A stretch of DNA of 30,386 bases, from assembly GCA_045605405.1 (NCBI GenBank), contig JAZUPX010000113.1:1-30386 (forward strand), read 5' to 3'. Positions within the stretch are counted from its first letter, which is position 1; every line of letters begins with the position of its first letter. Under the pieces are notes generated by a model. That model was not told where the DNA came from and did no database searches. It saw only the letters and a list, made by a program, of their open reading frames with translations. This document shows positions 6,765-23,600 of the stretch, piece by piece. Position numbers and translations under genes: made by a program. The DNA is from Clostridia bacterium. GTDB taxonomy: Bacteria; Bacillota; Clostridia; UMGS1883.

Positions 6765-7019
6765 TGTTACCAGTTTGATTTTTATTGGTAACACTATTTT
6801 TTCTTGAAAAACAAGGCTTTCTTTGCGTTTTGTTACTAAGGTTATCAATTTTCCTATACTTTACATTTTTATATATTTTTATAAAAAACGCACTTTTATA
6901 AAAGTTTCCCTTTAAATATTAGTAACAACATCATCATCAATCATCATTTTTCTTATAATTACGGGGTTTTAAGGTGTTACCAACGATGTTACCAACATGT
7001 TACCAGCATTGTTACCAAC
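6765..7019. repeat. Putative lytic replication origin: TGTTACCAAC iterons, inverted copies and AT-rich core
   Basis: Four direct repeats TGTTACCA(A/G)C at 6975, 6987, 6998, 7010. Inverted pair 6765-6773/6785-6793. Inverted pair TGTTACTAA 6831-6839/TTAGTAACA 6919-6927 flanking an AT-rich tract. Lies directly downstream of the VirE helicase. Confidence 0.7.
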
Positions 7020-11769: not shown

Positions 11770-11917
11770 CGTTTTTCTCCTTTCCTCGTCGTCACGTGCT
11801 TCACCGGAATCGTTTTCCTATTCGGAAAACTTAACCATGTTCCGCCGCTCCTCCTCTCCCCTTAAAATGCATCCGCATTTTCGGGGACCCCGTAGGGCAA
11901 AAAACATTCGCCCGTTC

Positions 11918-12089: not shown

Positions 12090-12374
12090 TTATGCTTCTT
12101 TTTCCCCTTTCTCAGCTGCTTCCGCATCCGCAAGTTCCACAATCGCTTCGCAAATATTAAGACGAAGCCATTCTTGCGCCGTCCGAAGAACCTCTTCCGC
12201 GAATTCTTTCTGAATCTTCTTAAGTGTCGGACTAAAGCTCTCGAAATCCTCGTCACCAAACATGCCATCCAACAATTCCCTTGCTTTTTCCATGCCGCTC
12301 ACAAACGCAAAATTCGTTACGTTCAAATCCTCTTTTTTGTACTCTCCGTTTTCAATAAGTCTTACAAAATCCAT
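12090..12374 (-). CDS. Hypothetical phage protein (94 aa, acidic)
   Basis: TAATG coupling to the upstream ORF; RBS AAAGGAG. Confidence 0.75.
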   Translation of the reverse strand: MDFVRLIENGEYKKEDLNVTNFAFVSGMEKARELLDGMFGDEDFESFSPTLKKIQKEFAEEVLRTAQEWLRLNICEAIVELADAEAAEKGEKEA

Positions 12375-12550
12375 TATAAATCCATCTCCTTTTCGTTCAT
12401 TTCTTCCGCTATTATTTCTGCTTCTCTTTTGTTTTCTGTGTACTCACCGGCAAACATTAAATTCCCACTGTGTACCGGCTTTGTGTCATCGATAACTTTC
12501 GCCGCGATATATCCCGCCATTGGGTTATGTAATACATGCCATTTACCCAT
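12374..12550 (-). CDS. Hypothetical protein, 58 aa (MGKWHVLHNPMAGYIAAKVIDDTKPVHSGNLMFAGEY...)
   Basis: Hand-translated; perfect RBS AAGGAGG; stop overlaps the next start. Confidence 0.75.
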   Translation of the reverse strand: MGKWHVLHNPMAGYIAAKVIDDTKPVHSGNLMFAGEYTENKREAEIIAEEMNEKEMDL

Positions 12551-12575: not shown

Positions 12576-12757
12576 TAGCGATATGCTCACTTTGTTCGCG
12601 CGATATATTTGTTTCACAAATGCGATATAGCCTCATTTTATTCAGCTGCGATATGATATAAATTCACACATTGGGTCCCGAAGGGACATATCGCATCGAA
12701 GATATATCGTGTTCCGAAGGAACATATCGCAAATTCCGTCAGGAATTTATATCGCTA
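12576..12757. repeat. Structured intergenic element: 4 x GCGATAT + 4 x inverted ATATCG(C/T), separated by hairpins
   Basis: GCGATAT at 12578, 12600, 12622, 12648; ATATCGC at 12688, 12724, 12749 and ATATCGT at 12704; spacers self-complementary (see findings). Confidence 0.9.
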
Positions 12758-13018
12758 TTTGATGATTGGAACAACAATCCTGTCGCATGGATGCAGCACT
12801 GATAAATCCTGTTCATTCACACGCTCAACCTTTATTTTCCAATCATCAAATCTTCCGTGCCCAACTTCCTCCCAAATGCTCCAAAGGCTGTCCCCTTCCT
12901 GCACGACTACTTCTACTGTGGTATATTCCATGCATGCGGCTTTCACAAACGAAGTCACCGCAAGCACAATGAGAACCACCGCCACAACTGCCGCCATGCG
13001 TTTCTCTTTTTTACTCAT
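12755..13018 (-). CDS. Membrane-anchored LysM protein, YneA-like
   Basis: N-terminal TM helix (AAVVAVVLIVLAVTSFV), then LysM pattern VVVQEGDSLWSI...N...L.P.DRIVVP. Confidence 0.75.
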   Translation of the reverse strand: MSKKEKRMAAVVAVVLIVLAVTSFVKAACMEYTTVEVVVQEGDSLWSIWEEVGHGRFDDWKIKVERVNEQDLSVLHPCDRIVVPIIK

Positions 13019-13587: not shown

Positions 13588-13776
13588 TCACACCTCCTTA
13601 AATAATTCATCAATTGTGCAGCCAAGAACCTCGGCAAGTGCCGGGAGTTTGTCTGTTCGCGGCATTGTTTCTCCAGTCTCCCACATAGCCACCGTGCTCT
13701 GCCCGATTTTCAGCATTCTTGCTAAATCCGTTTGTTTTAGTCCTGCTTTTTCACGAAGCTTTTTAATAATATTCAT
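13588..13776 (-). CDS. cro: Cro-like HTH regulator
   Basis: IKKLREKAGLKQTDLARMLKIGQSTVAMWETGETMPR; divergent from cI. Confidence 0.9.
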   Translation of the reverse strand: MNIIKKLREKAGLKQTDLARMLKIGQSTVAMWETGETMPRTDKLPALAEVLGCTIDELFKEV

Positions 13777-13793
13777 CTTTGCCCTCCTCTCGC

Positions 13794-13919
13794 ATCAGCT
13801 TTCTTGATGTTATGCTTTTATTATAAATCAGCTTTCTTGATATGTCAAGCGTTTTTTAAAAATTTTTTCAATTTTATTGATATTGTATTTACTTTTGGGG
13901 AAATATCAGTTATATTGAT
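13794..13919. promoter_or_regulatory. Lysis/lysogeny switch: four ATCA-N7-TGAT operators and divergent promoters
   Basis: ATCAGCTTTCTTGAT at 13794-13808 and 13827-13841, TTCAATTTTATTGAT at 13867-13881, ATCAGTTATATTGAT at 13905-13919. Leftward promoter TTGACA (13848-13843), 17 nt, TATAAT (13825-13820) with one operator in its spacer. Candidate rightward TTTACT (13888), 17 nt, TATATT (13911). Confidence 0.85.
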
Positions 13920-13934
13920 ATAGAGGTGATAACA

Positions 13935-14261
13935 ATGAATAGAATAAAAGAATTGCGAATACAGCGCGGAATAATGCAAAAAGATTTGTCTGAATTTTTA
14001 AACGTTGCGCAGAATACCGTGTCATATTGGGAAAAAGGAACGTATCAACCGGATAACGAAACGCTCGCTAAGCTCGCCGATTATTTCGGTGTCACAACCG
14101 ACTATCTTATAGGGCGCACTGACACCCCTGATTCTTCGTATCTTGATTCTGAGCTATCCGAAATAGACTTTGCCCTCTACGGCGAGGTTAAAGACTTGAC
14201 AGAAGAAGAGAAAGAGAAAATTTTAGAATTTATTAAGTTTACAAAATCGCAGAGAAAGTAG
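13935..14261 (+). CDS. cI: CI-like (ImmR-type) repressor, XRE HTH without an S24 autopeptidase domain
   Basis: RIKELR...QKDLSEFLNVAQNTVSYWEKGTYQPDNETLAKLADYFGVTTDYLIGR; ATG at 13935 after GAGGTG. Confidence 0.92.
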   Translation: MNRIKELRIQRGIMQKDLSEFLNVAQNTVSYWEKGTYQPDNETLAKLADYFGVTTDYLIGRTDTPDSSYLDSELSEIDFALYGEVKDLTEEEKEKILEFIKFTKSQRK

Positions 14262-14267
14262 GTCACT

Positions 14268-14660
14268 ATGACATTATTGAATTTATATGACATAGCCGCC
14301 AGTAACGGTTTTGAAGTTTACTATTATCCGCTCCGCCACATGAAGTCTATTTCCACGCCCGAGGCAATTGGCATTGACGTCGACATGCTTTCTTCTTCTC
14401 GAGAGGAAAAGGAATGTCTCGCCCACGAACTCGGTCACTGCATGACCGGCTCCTTCTACCGCATAGATACATTAGAGACTCGCGGCCGCATGGAAGAGCG
14501 CGCCAACCGTTGGGCGTATAAAACCGTCCTTCCTCTCTCCGAATTGCAGGAAGCTTTGCAAAGCGGAATCACCCAAGCTTGGGAACTGGCAGAATATTTT
14601 GACCTGCCACAAAAATTCATAGAAAAAGCACTCTCCTATTACGAAACGCAAAGTGCATAA
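14268..14660 (+). CDS. ImmA/IrrE-family metallopeptidase (antirepressor protease)
   Basis: EKECLAHELGH (HExxH), E.RANRWA; directly after the repressor. Confidence 0.92.
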   Translation: MTLLNLYDIAASNGFEVYYYPLRHMKSISTPEAIGIDVDMLSSSREEKECLAHELGHCMTGSFYRIDTLETRGRMEERANRWAYKTVLPLSELQEALQSGITQAWELAEYFDLPQKFIEKALSYYETQSA

Positions 14661-17694: not shown

Positions 17695-20600
17695 TTATCT
17701 ATACGGGTTCTTTTTCCACGTTGTATTGACGCTCTGCCATAACGCGGCCTTTTCTTCGTAGGACAAGCCTTCGAGTAGTTCTACAGCTTCCCTTGCTTCA
17801 TCTTGCGTATATGTGCCGTACTTTCCCTTTTTCGTGGGTTTATCCACTTTGGCAAGGGCTTCAACAAAATCTGCATATATACTGCTGTCTATGCCGTTTT
17901 CATATGCATAGTTTGCGCCTTTGCTTTCGTTATTAAGCAAGAACAATCCCCATTCCGCGTCACTTGTTAAATTAAGCAACTTCATTGCCGCGGCTTTTTC
18001 TTTAACGCTTGTTCCATCCTTTCCGTCGCTTACCATCTCCTTGGCAAGCTGCCACAAGGTATATTCCGTTTCATCGATGCCAAACTTCATCGCTTCTACT
18101 CTGATTTTTCCCATTGCTTCACTAGTTGACGTTAAAAAGTTATTGAGGTCAGCTTCTGCATTTTTTCTCTGCACCGCAGTTGCAGTTTTCCACAATCGAT
18201 TTTGTTTAACTTTGCTAAGGCTACTCTTGTACTTTTTCTTGCTTGCATCCGCTTTATTCATGCGAGCTTCTATGCCGCCCTCTAAATCATCCTCTGAATA
18301 GCCATTCTTTACAAGGTCTTTGTAAATTAACCTATATGCAGCTTTGTCGTTCTTGTAGGCATTAAAGAGAATGTCAATAAAGTTCTTGCTGTTCCCTGCG
18401 TAGTTGATATCAAGCATCCCCTTTTCCATACGATACTGCATAAGGGGGCTGTCCGTTATGGTTGCTACAGACATAATAAGAGACTTGATGTCCCTCTTTA
18501 CGTTTGCAACGGGCAATCCGTAAAACCTTGCTATTTCTGCGAAAAGCTGCGCTGATGCTTCGGTTATCGTGTACTTACCCGTGCCTGTAACCGCTTTGTA
18601 CATATTCACGATAGCATTGTAGGTCTTTGCTATTGCTTCTGTGTCCATACGCTTAACATCATAACCTGCAAAAATTGACATAGCATCCTTTGCAAACGGA
18701 ACATAATTAAGCGGGTTTACCGTATCGCCCAAATTGGAGTTCATCAAATTTGTTTCTTCCCCATCTCCAACGAAAGCGGCAGTCCATTTTTCCCAGTAGT
18801 CCTTTTCCGTGTCATCGTCTCGCATTGCATCAATGATTGATTGTGCGCAAGCGTTTATAATCCCTGCTACCGCAAGCGATACCGCCGTTCTTCCAAGTTG
18901 AGATACAGCCCTTTTACGCGCATCCCCCTTCCCGTTCATCGCATCGTATAACGCCGATACAGCCATATTGTACTGTTTTGTAGGCTCACCCATAAAGGAC
19001 GTTGCCATCTTTGTTAAAGCGTCAGGGGAACGCATTAACTGGCTTCTCTGCAATATGCCGTCAACCACTTGCGTATGGTCTACAATTTCCGTAAACCTTT
19101 TTGCCACAGTTTCATAATACGCCTCCGAACCGACTTCAAGTTCTTTATGCGTTGCCTTTGTTTCCGCTTCTACCGCGTTCCACAACTGACCCCACGCAAG
19201 ACTATCAGCCATTGACGCACCCCACATGCCGACTTGTTTTGCTTTTTCAAGCTTGCTTGCATTGTCGAAAAGCACATCCTTCATCTGCCTGCCTGTGTTG
19301 ATGTCGAAATATCCCCAATCTTTCCATTGTGCAATAGGGGCATACTTCTTAGCCTTCGCAAAGCCTTTCAACGGTCTTACAGCACCTTGGGCCAGATAAC
19401 GGGCATCTATCATATCAAGCGCCCTTAGAATCGCCGTAGGCTGTTGGATAATAACGCGAAGATTGGCGCCAACGGATGCCGCTTTGTAACCGCCTATGAA
19501 CTTATCAAACGGATTCATATTGTCTGTGCCCTTTACACCTATTGCAATATCCGTCAAAAGCTTTTCAAGGTATTCCGAACCGACTTTTGCGCCATGTACG
19601 GTATCAAGGATACCTTTTACAGTTCCTGTCCTTGCGCCCTCTTCCCAAAACACAAAGTTTCTGATGCGATTTATATCTTCACTTGCGCCGAGCCAGGCAG
19701 CGTAAGTTGCCATGTCCGAAGAATGAGAAGCAAAGGTATCAAAGATACTGCCTATACGGACAGAAGTATTTGCGTGAGGCAGTGTGCCTTTTGCCATGCC
19801 TTTGTTGGCAACGGACGTTACAGATGTATCTTTTCCTATTTCGCTGCTTATCTCCTGCTTGTTCGTTCGAATTGTCCAATAGTTTTTCTCAAGGAATTTT
19901 TCATAGTTATAGACCTTTATACTGGCTTCATTGCCATATGCACTTAAAACGGTAGAAACAAACTTTTGCAATTCATCTGCAATCTTCTTTTCCTTGTCCG
20001 TGAGTTTCGACAACGCTGTCGAGATCTCATCAGCCGAAATGTTTCGTATTGGCTCTACTCTTGTGTTTTTCTTTAGTCCTTTACCATCGGTCACATCAGG
20101 AAGTATGCCGCCAACCATAATGTGCTCTACTGCCTGTCCGCGCTTCATAAGCACATACAGTTCCATGAGTTGTGCCGTTGTCAGTTGAACATTTTCACCG
20201 CCGAGTTTTACGGTATGCATGGTATTTTCAAGTACATTTACATTTACATCCTTTAATGTATCATGTGTGAATTCTGCTACCTCTTTCATGATGCTTATGT
20301 GCTTGTCTTGTGCGTCTCGCATCATACGGAAGATAGAATCACCTGCATTACCTAAAAAATGAAAGTATGTTTCAGGCGTAAGCATATTAAGTGTCAATGT
20401 TGTTTTGCCCTTACCTAAAACGCCTTTTAGCTCCGTTCTTTCTTTTTTTTCTGCGTTATCCGCCCTTAATGCTTCTGCAAACGCTGAAATCGTTGCAAAC
20501 TTCCCTTGTGCAAATGTTTTGTTTGCTGTGCTTATGCTTGCTTCCACCGCCCGTATTGTTTGCCATACAGTTTCAAGCTCACTTGATGTCATGTCTACAA

Positions 20601-23600
20601 TCCGCTTGTCCGCAAGAGAGATTACATTACTCAGCAAACCACCCTCAACTATCAAGTCAGGGTCTACAACCACCGAGAAAGCAATATTTTTGTAAATATC
20701 CCTAAGTTCATTAAACACTTGCGTTCTCTTTGCCGGCAAGCCATCATCATTCTTTTTGTATGAACCGCTTTCTGTGTCGTAAGTGTAATTGCTTTCAAGG
20801 TTGATGGATTCAAGCAGCGCCGCAACCGCGCCCCGCAACTCATGTGGAATGTGCTGATTGTCAGTAGGATTCACAAGCTTTTTGCTAAGGTCTCTTGCAT
20901 GTCTCATTATCCGTGCGCGGATAACCTTCGCCTTTTGGCTTTCACTCATTTTGGAGATTGCCGCGCGGCGCTTTTCTTGTTCCTTCCGGACTTTATCATC
21001 CCTCTGCTGCCTTAATTTATCAATTTTCTTTTTGGTTTTTTCCTTCTGTAATTCAATGAGCTTCTTGATTCTCTCATCCTTCTGCTGCCTTATCGATTCA
21101 GCCTTTTTTTCACCTTTGATTTTTGCTTCTACGACCCTTCGTTCTGCCTTGTCGGCAAAAGTAGGCTTTGCTTGCGGAATGTCAAAGAAACGGGAAGTAA
21201 GGTCATTTGCGAGGTGCATGGAAACTCGTTCAATCTGCCCGTCAAACGGGTTTGCCTCTGTTGTTCTGATGCTGTCAAGCACTTCTACGATGCGTTCCAA
21301 CTGGTCTGCTGAATTGGTTTGTTCTTCCTCGTTGAAAAACTCAGGATATAAGGAAGATAACTCCTGATAAACAGAATCAATGCTCCGTCCGTCATTGGTG
21401 AAGTTCAGCCGCCCCATATTTCTTTTGCGAAACTCGTTAAAGTTTTCATATACAGAAGGTATGCTGTCAAATCCTTCATAGAATTTAATGCGTGTAGTTC
21501 GCAAATAATCACGAAGGGCCTTATTCTCCTGATATAAATAATCATCCTTAACAAGCGCGTTTTTTACAATTTCCAATGCCACCTTGTAAGCTCTGCTGTA
21601 TACATCATCCCATACTGCCGGATGTCCGTCCTCGCCGTTCGCCATGTACCGATACAAGGAATCAATAGAAGCAAATGTTTCGTCATAGTCCGCATGACTG
21701 CTGTACTCCTTCAGAATGTCACGGGTCATTTTTGCAAGCTTCTTCGGGTCTGCCTTCGGAAACTTTGTAACCTCAAATTCACCTTTTAAATGCTCGATGA
21801 TGTCTAAAAGGTCTTTTCGGTCTTTTGCGCTCATGCCGTTGTTGGTATTTTTGAGGGAGAAAGAAACATCAGGTGCGCTGTTAACCTTAGAATCTTTGAA
21901 ATATTCCGACTGTGCTTCGGTTAAAGTGTTGCCTTTGTTGTCCTTTAAAGAATAGCTCTTTTGCTCCGTTCTGCGTAAATTTTCGATGACATTCCAGAAA
22001 GCTGGGCTTCCGTTGCGTTGGGATTGTCCCGGCAAAACTCCAGCATTTTGATTGTGTCCTCCGCCACCCAAGTTTCCCGTATTATTTTGGCTACTGTTGA
22101 CAATTCGCATCCAACCGCCGCGAGATACCCAGTTAACATACGCTGATTTTCCGTTAACGCTCTTGCCATTTTCTATTTCCTCCAATAAACCCATTAAAAT
22201 ATCTAATTCGAAGCTTCCGCCATCGCCTTTTCTTTCGTACAGAATAGTAGGATTGCCAGGTGTTGCCGTACTATATATGGCAAACAAAGCTTCCCCGTCA
22301 ATTCTGCCTTTATACCAACATCCATCCGTATCTGCGATTCTGTACGGTTCGTGATTATCAACCTGACGAATCCAATTCTCTACCATTCTGTACTGTCTTG
22401 CGTTCAAATCTGTGCGCCATTTCAGCGAATGGCTTACGTTATAATTATAATCCTCTTTTGCCTTAATTTCAAGATTTTTTGAAGTTTTTGACTCCGTACT
22501 CCTTGCCTGTATCGCCTTTTTGTTCTCCACAGCCTTTGCGAAAGCCGTCTCAAACATATCACGAAGTTTTGTAATTTCGTCGAGTTCCGCCTGTCCCTCT
22601 GCTCTTTCTCTGCCGCTTTTCCCCGTAAGGAAATCACTAATTTTCTTTATAATGTTTTTGAGAAAATCAACGTACTTCCTTAAGCCTTGCTTTGCCTTTT
22701 CGTCCGTGCCGTTAACAATTCTGTCAATAGCATCGTGGAATCTCGCTTCATCGTTATTATAAAGGTACAGAATGTTGTTTGCCGACAACTCTTCCATGGC
22801 TTCTGCAAGGGATATTTCTACATCCTGCGCGGCGTATGCATTTCGCTTTTCGTCTGCAAGAGTAAAATTTGAAGGCTCATTCCCGGCAAGATGATTGTAC
22901 ATTGCATATACGAACGCGCTACCTTCTTCCGGCGCAAGGTCAACCACTCTGTGAAGTGCCATTTCGTGCGCCGCATGGAATACAATAGAAACCTTCTGTC
23001 GGTTACCGTCTGCCCCGATTTCTCTTTCAAAATCAAAGTCAATAGGTACTTCCCCCGTTTGTCTGTTATACTCAGCGTTGCCTTTCAGCCCTTTTGCCAC
23101 ATATGATTTTACGCCTAAGCCTTCCGCCATTTGATTGAGAATGCCGACTTGCGTTTCGGTAACATCGCTCGGAAGGTTTTCAGCAAGGAAGCCGCTTTCC
23201 ATATTCACAACTGCGTTTCTAAACCTTTCCTTCGCGGCAAGGTCTTGCATTTGTCTGTCCATCTGCCCTGCTGTGAATGCATCCGCTTGCGCTTTGGAAA
23301 CAAACGCATTTTCAGCCTTTTTAATGTCCAAATCGGGCTGTTGAAAGCCTGTCACATATGATGCCTTGACCTCTGCCATTGCCTTAGAGAATGTCGCGCC
23401 TTCTTGATTGGAAAGATTCGCAACAAGCTTTGCACCCTCTTCGCCAAAGCCGGTGACCTTCCTTACCTCATCTGCAGTTATCTCCACGTCATACCCTGTA
23501 AGTCTGTCAAGCACTTCGTCGTTCACTTCGCCACGCCGCCGCGCTTCCAGAAGAGAAACGCCGTCCGTTCTGTTCCGTCTTGCAACAGCTTCCCTTGCCG

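Follow-up and report, generated by a model that had tools for sequence, protein, structure and literature searches.

A string of short hairpins set in mirror image inside a prophage raises the question of whether it is read as RNA or as DNA, and by what. The string lies in a 30,386-nt stretch, hereafter the window, that is a whole contig (JAZUPX010000113.1) of a 1.31-Mb Clostridia bacterium assembly (GCA_045605405.1), and forms an element of four GCGATAT heptamers, a 20-nt core and four ATATCG(C/T) heptamers, with hairpins separating the heptamers. The initial annotation, drawn from the letters of the window, had suggested that both strands are read as single-stranded DNA (ssDNA), each in its own 3' half. 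Across 183 homologous elements and eleven sister heptamer classes this idea was upheld, as both loop class and wobble tolerance swap strand between the halves. We consider it most likely, from comparative sequence data, that both strands are read as folded DNA, either fully single-stranded or extruded as in N4 promoters, and that the family catalogued as the Gut-1 "RNA" motif probably serves as a DNA signal, addressed to a small ring-forming protein of unknown function.

Mirror anatomy and strand-specific loops

The element comprises the following features:

12578-12755 (178 bases): whole element, a mirror array of 4+4 heptamers and seven hairpins, with no gene; GCGATAT class of Gut-1-type arrays
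12578-12654, minus strand: left half; heptamers at 12578, 12600, 12622 and 12648, reading ATATCGC on the minus strand
12585-12599, minus strand: left-half hairpin with AAA loop and tandem GA/GA pairs
12607-12621, minus strand: left-half hairpin with GAA loop, closed by T-A rather than C-G
12629-12647, minus strand: left-half hairpin with AAA loop, tandem GA/GA pairs and a T.G wobble on the minus strand
12655-12674, plus strand: central core, whose first 11 nt (12655-12665) are the exact reverse complement of 12743-12753
12675-12755, plus strand: right half; four hairpins with ATATCG(C/T) after each, at 12688, 12704, 12724 and 12749
12675-12687, 12695-12703 and 12711-12723, plus strand: right-half hairpins with C-GAA-G triloops
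12731-12748, plus strand: right-half hairpin with C-GTCA-G loop

All seven hairpins of the initial annotation were located here with the loops it lists, on the plus strand in the right half and on the minus strand in the left; its ATATCGC flanks amount to eight heptamers spanning 12578-12755, one of which reads ATATCGT instead. The 1.31-Mb genome has 137 occurrences of GCGATAT/ATATCGC (0.10 per kb); at no other site in it is any 7-mer present in at least three exact copies per orientation within 200 nt. The left-half loops of the window copy are degenerate and none is C-GAA-G, the family consensus for that half. The complementarity between the core and 12743-12753 provides a pairing alternative to the last hairpin, and the core pairs with the outer end over at least 10 nt in 99 of the 130 full elements, in eight co-varying versions, which suggests a conformational switch or an internal end signal.

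We compared 183 distinct homologous elements, of which 130 are complete and 53 are half elements, counting distinct spacers and designating the gene-sense strand (minus in the window) as A and its complement (plus in the window) as B. In the half nearer the 5' end of A, which is the right half of the window copy, the purine loops are on B (GNA 60, GNYA 35, GNRA 34 and AAA 12, with one on the wrong strand), whereas in the other half they are on A (GNA 82, AAA 38, GNRA 22 and GNYA 18, with none on the wrong strand). The strand split in the eleven other heptamer classes is 46:0 and 39:0, with 53 triloops and 19 GNYA versus 13 GNRA loops; GNA triloops thus dominate and GNRA is not preferred. Isolated G.T wobbles follow the same division, with a preference for B in the first half (28:11) and for A in the second (20:5), and tandem G.A pairs in the second half are on A in 339 cases versus 13. 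Melting data indicate that among the 64 triloops only GNA forms a DNA mini-hairpin, GAA being the most stable, and that GNNA tetraloops with a pyrimidine at the third base, including GTTA, also work, the RNA counterparts being far weaker (PMC13037366). Because the loop rule swaps strand at the centre of the element, a single RNA cannot account for it.

Two of the checks proposed with the annotation were applied. Tolerance of G-U pairs on one strand only, looked for among the homologues, was not seen; tolerance changes strand between the halves. Folding energies computed with ViennaRNA per half and strand were uninformative: the right half has z scores of -2.4 (plus) and -2.8 (minus) as DNA and of -1.8/-1.9 as RNA, and the left half has z > 0 on both strands in both chemistries. 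To our knowledge, the ViennaRNA DNA parameters lack terms for mini-hairpins and sheared pairs. Several observations count against a DNA reading. About half of the distinct spacers fit no loop class; the Fisher p of 8.5e-5 for the wobble flip is overstated, as such p-values are here, because the homologues are related; and the flip could partly stem from deamination of exposed strands rather than from selection, although this too needs exposure. In addition, the element is usually co-oriented with transcription (46 versus 8), as an RNA role would also predict.

On the minus strand, positions 12683-12757 match the Rfam Gut-1 model (RF01706) at 38.4 bits (E 6.8e-6), below its gathering score of 50; model positions 1-77 align to the element with three variable hairpins and a fixed 7-nt linker, the linker sequence being different. 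The same model scores above gathering on arrays that precede the four-helix-bundle genes described below (76.9 at L316, 70.5 at L297, 53.7 at L298 and 53.0 at L330), and the GTGAAAT, GTGATAT and GTGAAGT classes exceed the threshold with their mirror halves matched on the other strand. Gut-1 is a motif of gut Clostridia (Weinberg et al. 2010, PMC2864571). Sequence-variable hairpins, a fixed 7-nt linker and gut clostridial hosts are common to both; Gut-1 differs in its linker (GTGAAAT versus GCGATAT here), in modelling one half where we see a mirror pair, and in being filed as a small RNA without a partner gene. The element is a new heptamer variant of the Gut-1 kind.

Dispersal, copies and insertion sites

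A pattern built from the right half was searched in 61 related genomes, GTDB and viral contigs. The element is present in 15 of the 61 genomes, with up to eight exact-pattern matches in each and none in controls, and at least 120 GTDB loci carry it, nearly all in gut Clostridia; among 2.9 million viral contigs two carry it (L020 and L103), there between structural genes. A loose heptamer pattern gave 119 matches in the viral contigs, nearly all of them unrelated tandem repeats, with homologues only in L020 and L103, and a search for related phages with VapE as bait and by blastn against GenBank phages found none. The copies in related genomes are intergenic and their neighbour genes mutually unrelated. 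Copies within a genome are closer to one another than copies from different genomes (0.82 versus 0.70, with 36% versus 2% at 0.9 or more); the element is a dispersed repeat that is amplified within genomes.

Insertion in the window is marked by a LysM-like gene whose stop codon overlaps the outermost heptamer:

12755-13018, minus strand: LysM-like gene, 87 aa, weak LysM match; marks the insertion site
12757-12771: 3' arm, on the minus strand, of a 15-bp perfect inverted repeat; LysM coding DNA that abuts the element and takes the place of the terminal hairpin
12837-12851: second arm of that repeat, 65 nt away within the LysM gene

Orthologous phage sites without the element exist. It is absent at five of six other phage loci with LysM homologues, and the sixth, in the sister phage L413 (95% LysM identity), has it at the same site minus 70 nt of the left half. 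In other phages, at loci L414 (3265-3300) and L422 (2265-2320), tandem AATGAAT/GTGAAT-type heptamers, of the kind that precedes distant four-helix-bundle genes, directly follow the same LysM stop codon; the LysM 3' site has apparently caught different repeat families independently.

In 121 of 172 copies the first heptamer is directly adjoined by a perfect hairpin of 8 bp or more, compared with 4 of 172 controls. The rlmD/rumA gene is a hot spot for several heptamer classes, and there the C-terminal codons of the gene itself form the edge stem, whose centre differs between lineages and whose median score is 12 with the element and 6 without. In an unbiased set of rlmD/rumA 3' ends from relatives (L426-L455), about half of the genes that were parsed have a complete array or a remnant at their end; the rumA arrays of this set belong to several heptamer classes, the gene tail forming a hairpin each time. 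The L020 copy is flanked by an 18-bp direct repeat. TTATA/TATAAT was considered as a target duplication and set aside, as it is found at both ends in a minority of copies only.

The prophage-like contig L103 has four intergenic sites, three of which hold near-identical whole or partial pattern-matched copies and one a remnant; GTAG-type repetitive extragenic palindromic (REP) doublets and runs of CAACTGT-type heptamers are present on it as well. Of the 130 full elements, 18 are followed by a conserved tail, GCATCTAAA...TATAAT, which was seen at L133, L141, L144, L205, L254, L282 and L347; it links tandem copies and is likewise found after an array of the GCTAAAT class and after cargo genes. 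The tail is possibly the far end of a cassette. As a promoter it was rejected, the spacing of 19-20 nt being non-canonical.

A probable four-helix-bundle partner and the competing readings

The commonest neighbour family of the arrays is a four-helix-bundle gene of about 114 aa, found at a fixed distance at 26 loci with its ribosome-binding site right after the last heptamer; 30 of the 130 complete elements run directly into its start. By profile match the protein family is PF05635/TIGR02436, with the five-chain solved relatives 2rld and 2gsc. Related genomes contain up to eight divergent PF05635 paralogues each, most of them preceded by the same mirror architecture with another heptamer or by plain tandem heptamers, and the distant paralogues have pure tandem heptamers without hairpins. 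In a quick protein tree of 119 columns the heptamer tracks the protein: the 32 GCGATAT rows form one clade (Shimodaira-Hasegawa approximate likelihood-ratio support 97), and 16 heptamer changes are needed versus 62 after shuffling. In alignment A1, the clades with the most hairpin-spaced arrays share a basic G-x-I-R-(R/K) motif in the last helix, a candidate hairpin contact that the tandem-heptamer clades lack. At three loci of the ATGATGT/GTGATGT classes (L343, L345 and L355) the halves stand in reverse order, divergent rather than convergent, with the purine loops still on the ACATCA strand.

The leading explanation, to which we give an even chance, is that the arrays belong to a mobile cassette acting at the DNA level, of which a complete form would consist of a terminal stem, the mirror heptamer/hairpin array, a ribosome-binding site and a PF05635/TIGR02436 gene, and of which the window copy would be a geneless, non-autonomous form of gut Clostridia. 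The duplex may be opened by supercoil-driven extrusion, by transcription from the promoter that is often in front, or by a passing fork. Each strand would then fold the half in which its loops read G(N)1-2A, giving two head-to-head strings of mini-hairpins with an unpaired ATATCGC after each hairpin. A cognate four-helix-bundle ring, supplied in trans, would bind these strings via the heptamer, and the complex could mark the unit for copying by host enzymes to new sites directly 3' of a stem in the target DNA. The copy in the prophage is probably an idle passenger, as in the host assembly (G000, 90% complete) neither protein nor family matches revealed a PF05635 gene. A broader proposition, which we advance only tentatively, is that Gut-1-type arrays and Avd-like four-helix-bundle proteins outside diversity-generating retroelements (DGRs) make up an undescribed kind of transposase-less mobile DNA, in which a pentameric ring recognises, on each of the two separated strands, the clade-specific heptamers displayed between GNA mini-hairpins and steers copying beside target-derived stems.

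Against the cassette stand the following. The 172 flanks show no consistent target duplication, and most copies have none at all. The match between heptamer and clade is also expected from simple physical linkage. Ten of the 15 array-bearing genomes, which are incomplete metagenome assemblies, yielded no close GCGATAT-clade gene, including the one with eight copies. At about 150 loci the neighbourhood of the arrays shows no enrichment of nuclease, integrase or reverse transcriptase genes, and a Y1 transposase partner was rejected, since eight PF01797 loci in five high-copy genomes carry 0-1 heptamers and no array. Finally, a homologue without the GCGATAT element, L417, has an 11/12 counterpart of the LysM inverted repeat, so that this repeat may predate the insertion; the same counterpart weakens fold-back synthesis, otherwise an attractive idea, as the origin of the 15-bp repeat.

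The most familiar alternative is a structured RNA, in which the minus-strand transcript folds all the hairpins as a leader of the four-helix-bundle mRNA and is bound by the protein for autoregulation or processing, in the manner of 23S intervening sequences. Consistent with this, the Gut-1 match lies on the minus strand, arrays usually run in the sense of the gene that follows, often starting shortly after a -10 box, and CCGAAGG is the complement of the RNA loop cUUCGg, with a C-G pair outside 74 of 129 such loops. Tandem GA pairs are also stable in RNA, and Avd binds RNA in DGRs. However, the remaining 55 of 129 TTC loops, which lack the outer C-G, cannot form cUUCGg, the others can do so only by a register slip with a bulge, and the loops TGAC, TGC, TAAC and TAC are not explained by it. 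On the sense strand, loops of the first half read T(N)1-2C and come in two lengths, with A.C mismatches outnumbering G.U 28:11; triloops dominate without preference for GNRA, and the Gut-1 model also matches the mirror half on the opposite strand (L316 and L297). Such a leader is unlikely, and the passages on Gut-1 found in its source paper (PMC2864571) report no test of the motif as RNA. A retro cycle would accommodate the importance of both strands: a host or DGR/intron enzyme, aided by the Avd-like protein, would copy the sense RNA into cDNA, one half of the array would fold in this cDNA and the other half either in the RNA or in the second strand, and the cDNA would enter gene ends and promoters. 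The sense orientation, the starts near -10 boxes and the reported homology of PF05635 to DGR Avd (PMC10053308) agree with it, and target-derived stems and the one 18-bp duplication would fit templated priming. We nevertheless judge it decidedly unlikely: there is no reverse transcriptase beside any of the roughly 150 loci, the sense-strand half also has DNA-type triloops (GNA 82), and duplications are not the rule.

A fixed 7-mer in mirror arrangement directly upstream of a gene, and distant paralogues with pure tandem heptamers, might equally describe inverted duplex-DNA binding sites, an operator of the four-helix-bundle gene whose palindromic spacers arose by slippage or template switching; a ladder of left and right heptamers, which are complementary in every class, is a variant of this idea. 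Both are improbable, as spacers of 9 to over 20 nt put the sites out of helical phase, the near-absolute strand-specific loop rule is unneeded for duplex binding, variant heptamers are compensated by the partner in only 4 of 71 cases, and half elements are common (53/183). The initial annotation had named a bidirectional priming or single-strand initiation site as its first example. GNA mini-hairpins do occur at the G4, ssiA and N4 signals (PMC13037366), and the element lies upstream of a Sak4/CHC2-primase/VapE module. This proposal nonetheless fell to the survey and we give it very little credence: the element is a mostly chromosomal, multi-copy repeat rather than a conserved single-copy feature of related replicons, the two viral contigs (of 2.9 million) carry it between structural genes, and of the six other phage LysM loci five are without it, while in the sister phage half of it is deleted. 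Of the functions considered at the outset, a signal for recombination or mobility is likelier than a priming site. A better candidate for the replication origin of the phage is probably found elsewhere in the window:

6765-7017: eight TGTTAC(C/T)A-type iteron-like repeats around a tract of 78% A+T, immediately following the VapE gene

Four of these repeats are direct and 11-12 nt apart, and the others occur in both orientations; the assignment follows the example of phages with P4-type primase-helicases.

Set beside known systems, the cassette we propose has partial counterparts. REP and bacterial interspersed mosaic elements, with their REP-associated tyrosine transposases, are dispersed, mostly geneless intergenic palindromic repeats that a cognate protein reads as ssDNA. 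Ssn-NTS repeats are likewise described as dispersed intergenic palindromes read as ssDNA by a cognate protein whose gene adjoins a minority of the copies (Chenal et al. 2025, PMC11893778). Our element resembles both in its dispersed, multi-copy, mostly geneless intergenic hairpins, but has no GTAG foot, its arrays have no HUH/Y1 or GIY-YIG gene beside them, and the adjacent protein has no known catalytic activity; by analogy it would work like a REP- or Ssn-type repeat while failing membership of those families. As for a miniature inverted-repeat transposable element of a DDE insertion sequence, the 172 flanks show no constant target duplication and no transposase neighbour was found. The 23S ribosomal RNA (rRNA) intervening sequences of Coxiella carry an S23p/PF05635 open reading frame (ORF) with heptamer repeats just upstream and have been proposed to be a former mobile element (Warrier et al. 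2016, PMC4990558). The protein family and the heptamers just upstream of the ORF are shared. Their heptamers are tandem, and the element lies in rRNA and is cut out by RNase III, whereas here hairpins separate the heptamers, both arrays are upstream of the gene, the sites are intergenic and the window copy has no ORF; it lies between phage ORFs, without an Rfam rRNA match or an ORF inside. The telomere palindromes of Streptomyces bound by Tap (PMC5449611), the G4/ssiA origins and the N4 promoters (PMC13037366) are ssDNA signals made of GNA mini-hairpins. They too are strings of short hairpins with loops closed by sheared G.A pairs, recognition as folded ssDNA and alternative pairings between palindromes, but are single-copy replication or transcription signals on one strand, in contrast to a dispersed, two-fold symmetric, internal array with heptamer spacers. 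The DGR protein Avd/bAvd shares the reported PF05635 homology (PMC10053308) and the matches to 2rld and 2gsc; it differs in that no reverse transcriptase is enriched near the arrays, and bAvd (4DWL) was not reached by profile search.

The main interest of these observations is the evidence for Gut-1-type arrays as DNA signals with a testable protein partner, the DNA-strand evidence being the added part. They bring together two orphans of long standing: the Gut-1 motif has been listed as an RNA since 2010 without an assigned function, and PF05635/TIGR02436 is a widespread family of ring proteins, related to DGR Avd, for which no ligand is known. Should the broader proposition above hold, a family catalogued as "RNA" would turn out to be an ssDNA signal, and a large protein family of unknown function would become a programmable reader of ssDNA. 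The strand flip yields a prediction of the strand, the chemistry and the heptamer to be bound by each protein clade, and with it a general way of separating ssDNA from RNA motifs in sequence data, a task called difficult by Weinberg et al. 2017 (PMC5737381). The open-access literature yielded nothing relevant on TIGR02436, on four-helix-bundle proteins with Avd and hairpins, or on the strand logic of GNA triloops versus UUCG.

The prophage around the array

The window is a prophage with terminase, VapE-type helicase, CHC2 zinc finger, ERCC4, AAA_24 and serine recombinase genes. The array sits in its leftward early operon, between the 87-aa LysM-like gene and a 58-aa ORF, and is probably transcribed there as minus-strand RNA. 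Besides the LysM-like gene, the neighbouring features are:

12374-12550, minus strand: 58-aa ORF of no family, downstream of the array, with its ribosome-binding site after the last heptamer
13588-14660: Cro-like and CI-like genes and an IrrE-like peptidase gene
13820-13848, minus strand: promoter of the sigma-70 type, a perfect 12/12 match, in front of the Cro-like gene

The locus is ordinary for the phage, and the element is probably unimportant for the prophage itself. Three 17-nt repeats at 13794-13921, between the divergent Cro-like and CI-like genes, overlap the perfect promoter and are probably operators. A 2687-aa ORF at 17695-25758 is without a Pfam match and hits a single PHROG, phrog_22978, of unknown function; its neighbours are internal-virion and endolysin genes. 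A second non-coding repeat element, at 11776-11895 on the minus strand, starts with GGGGTCCCC and has a hairpin and a purine-rich tail; one further copy is found on contig C30, and relatives follow the LysM genes in L417 and L424.
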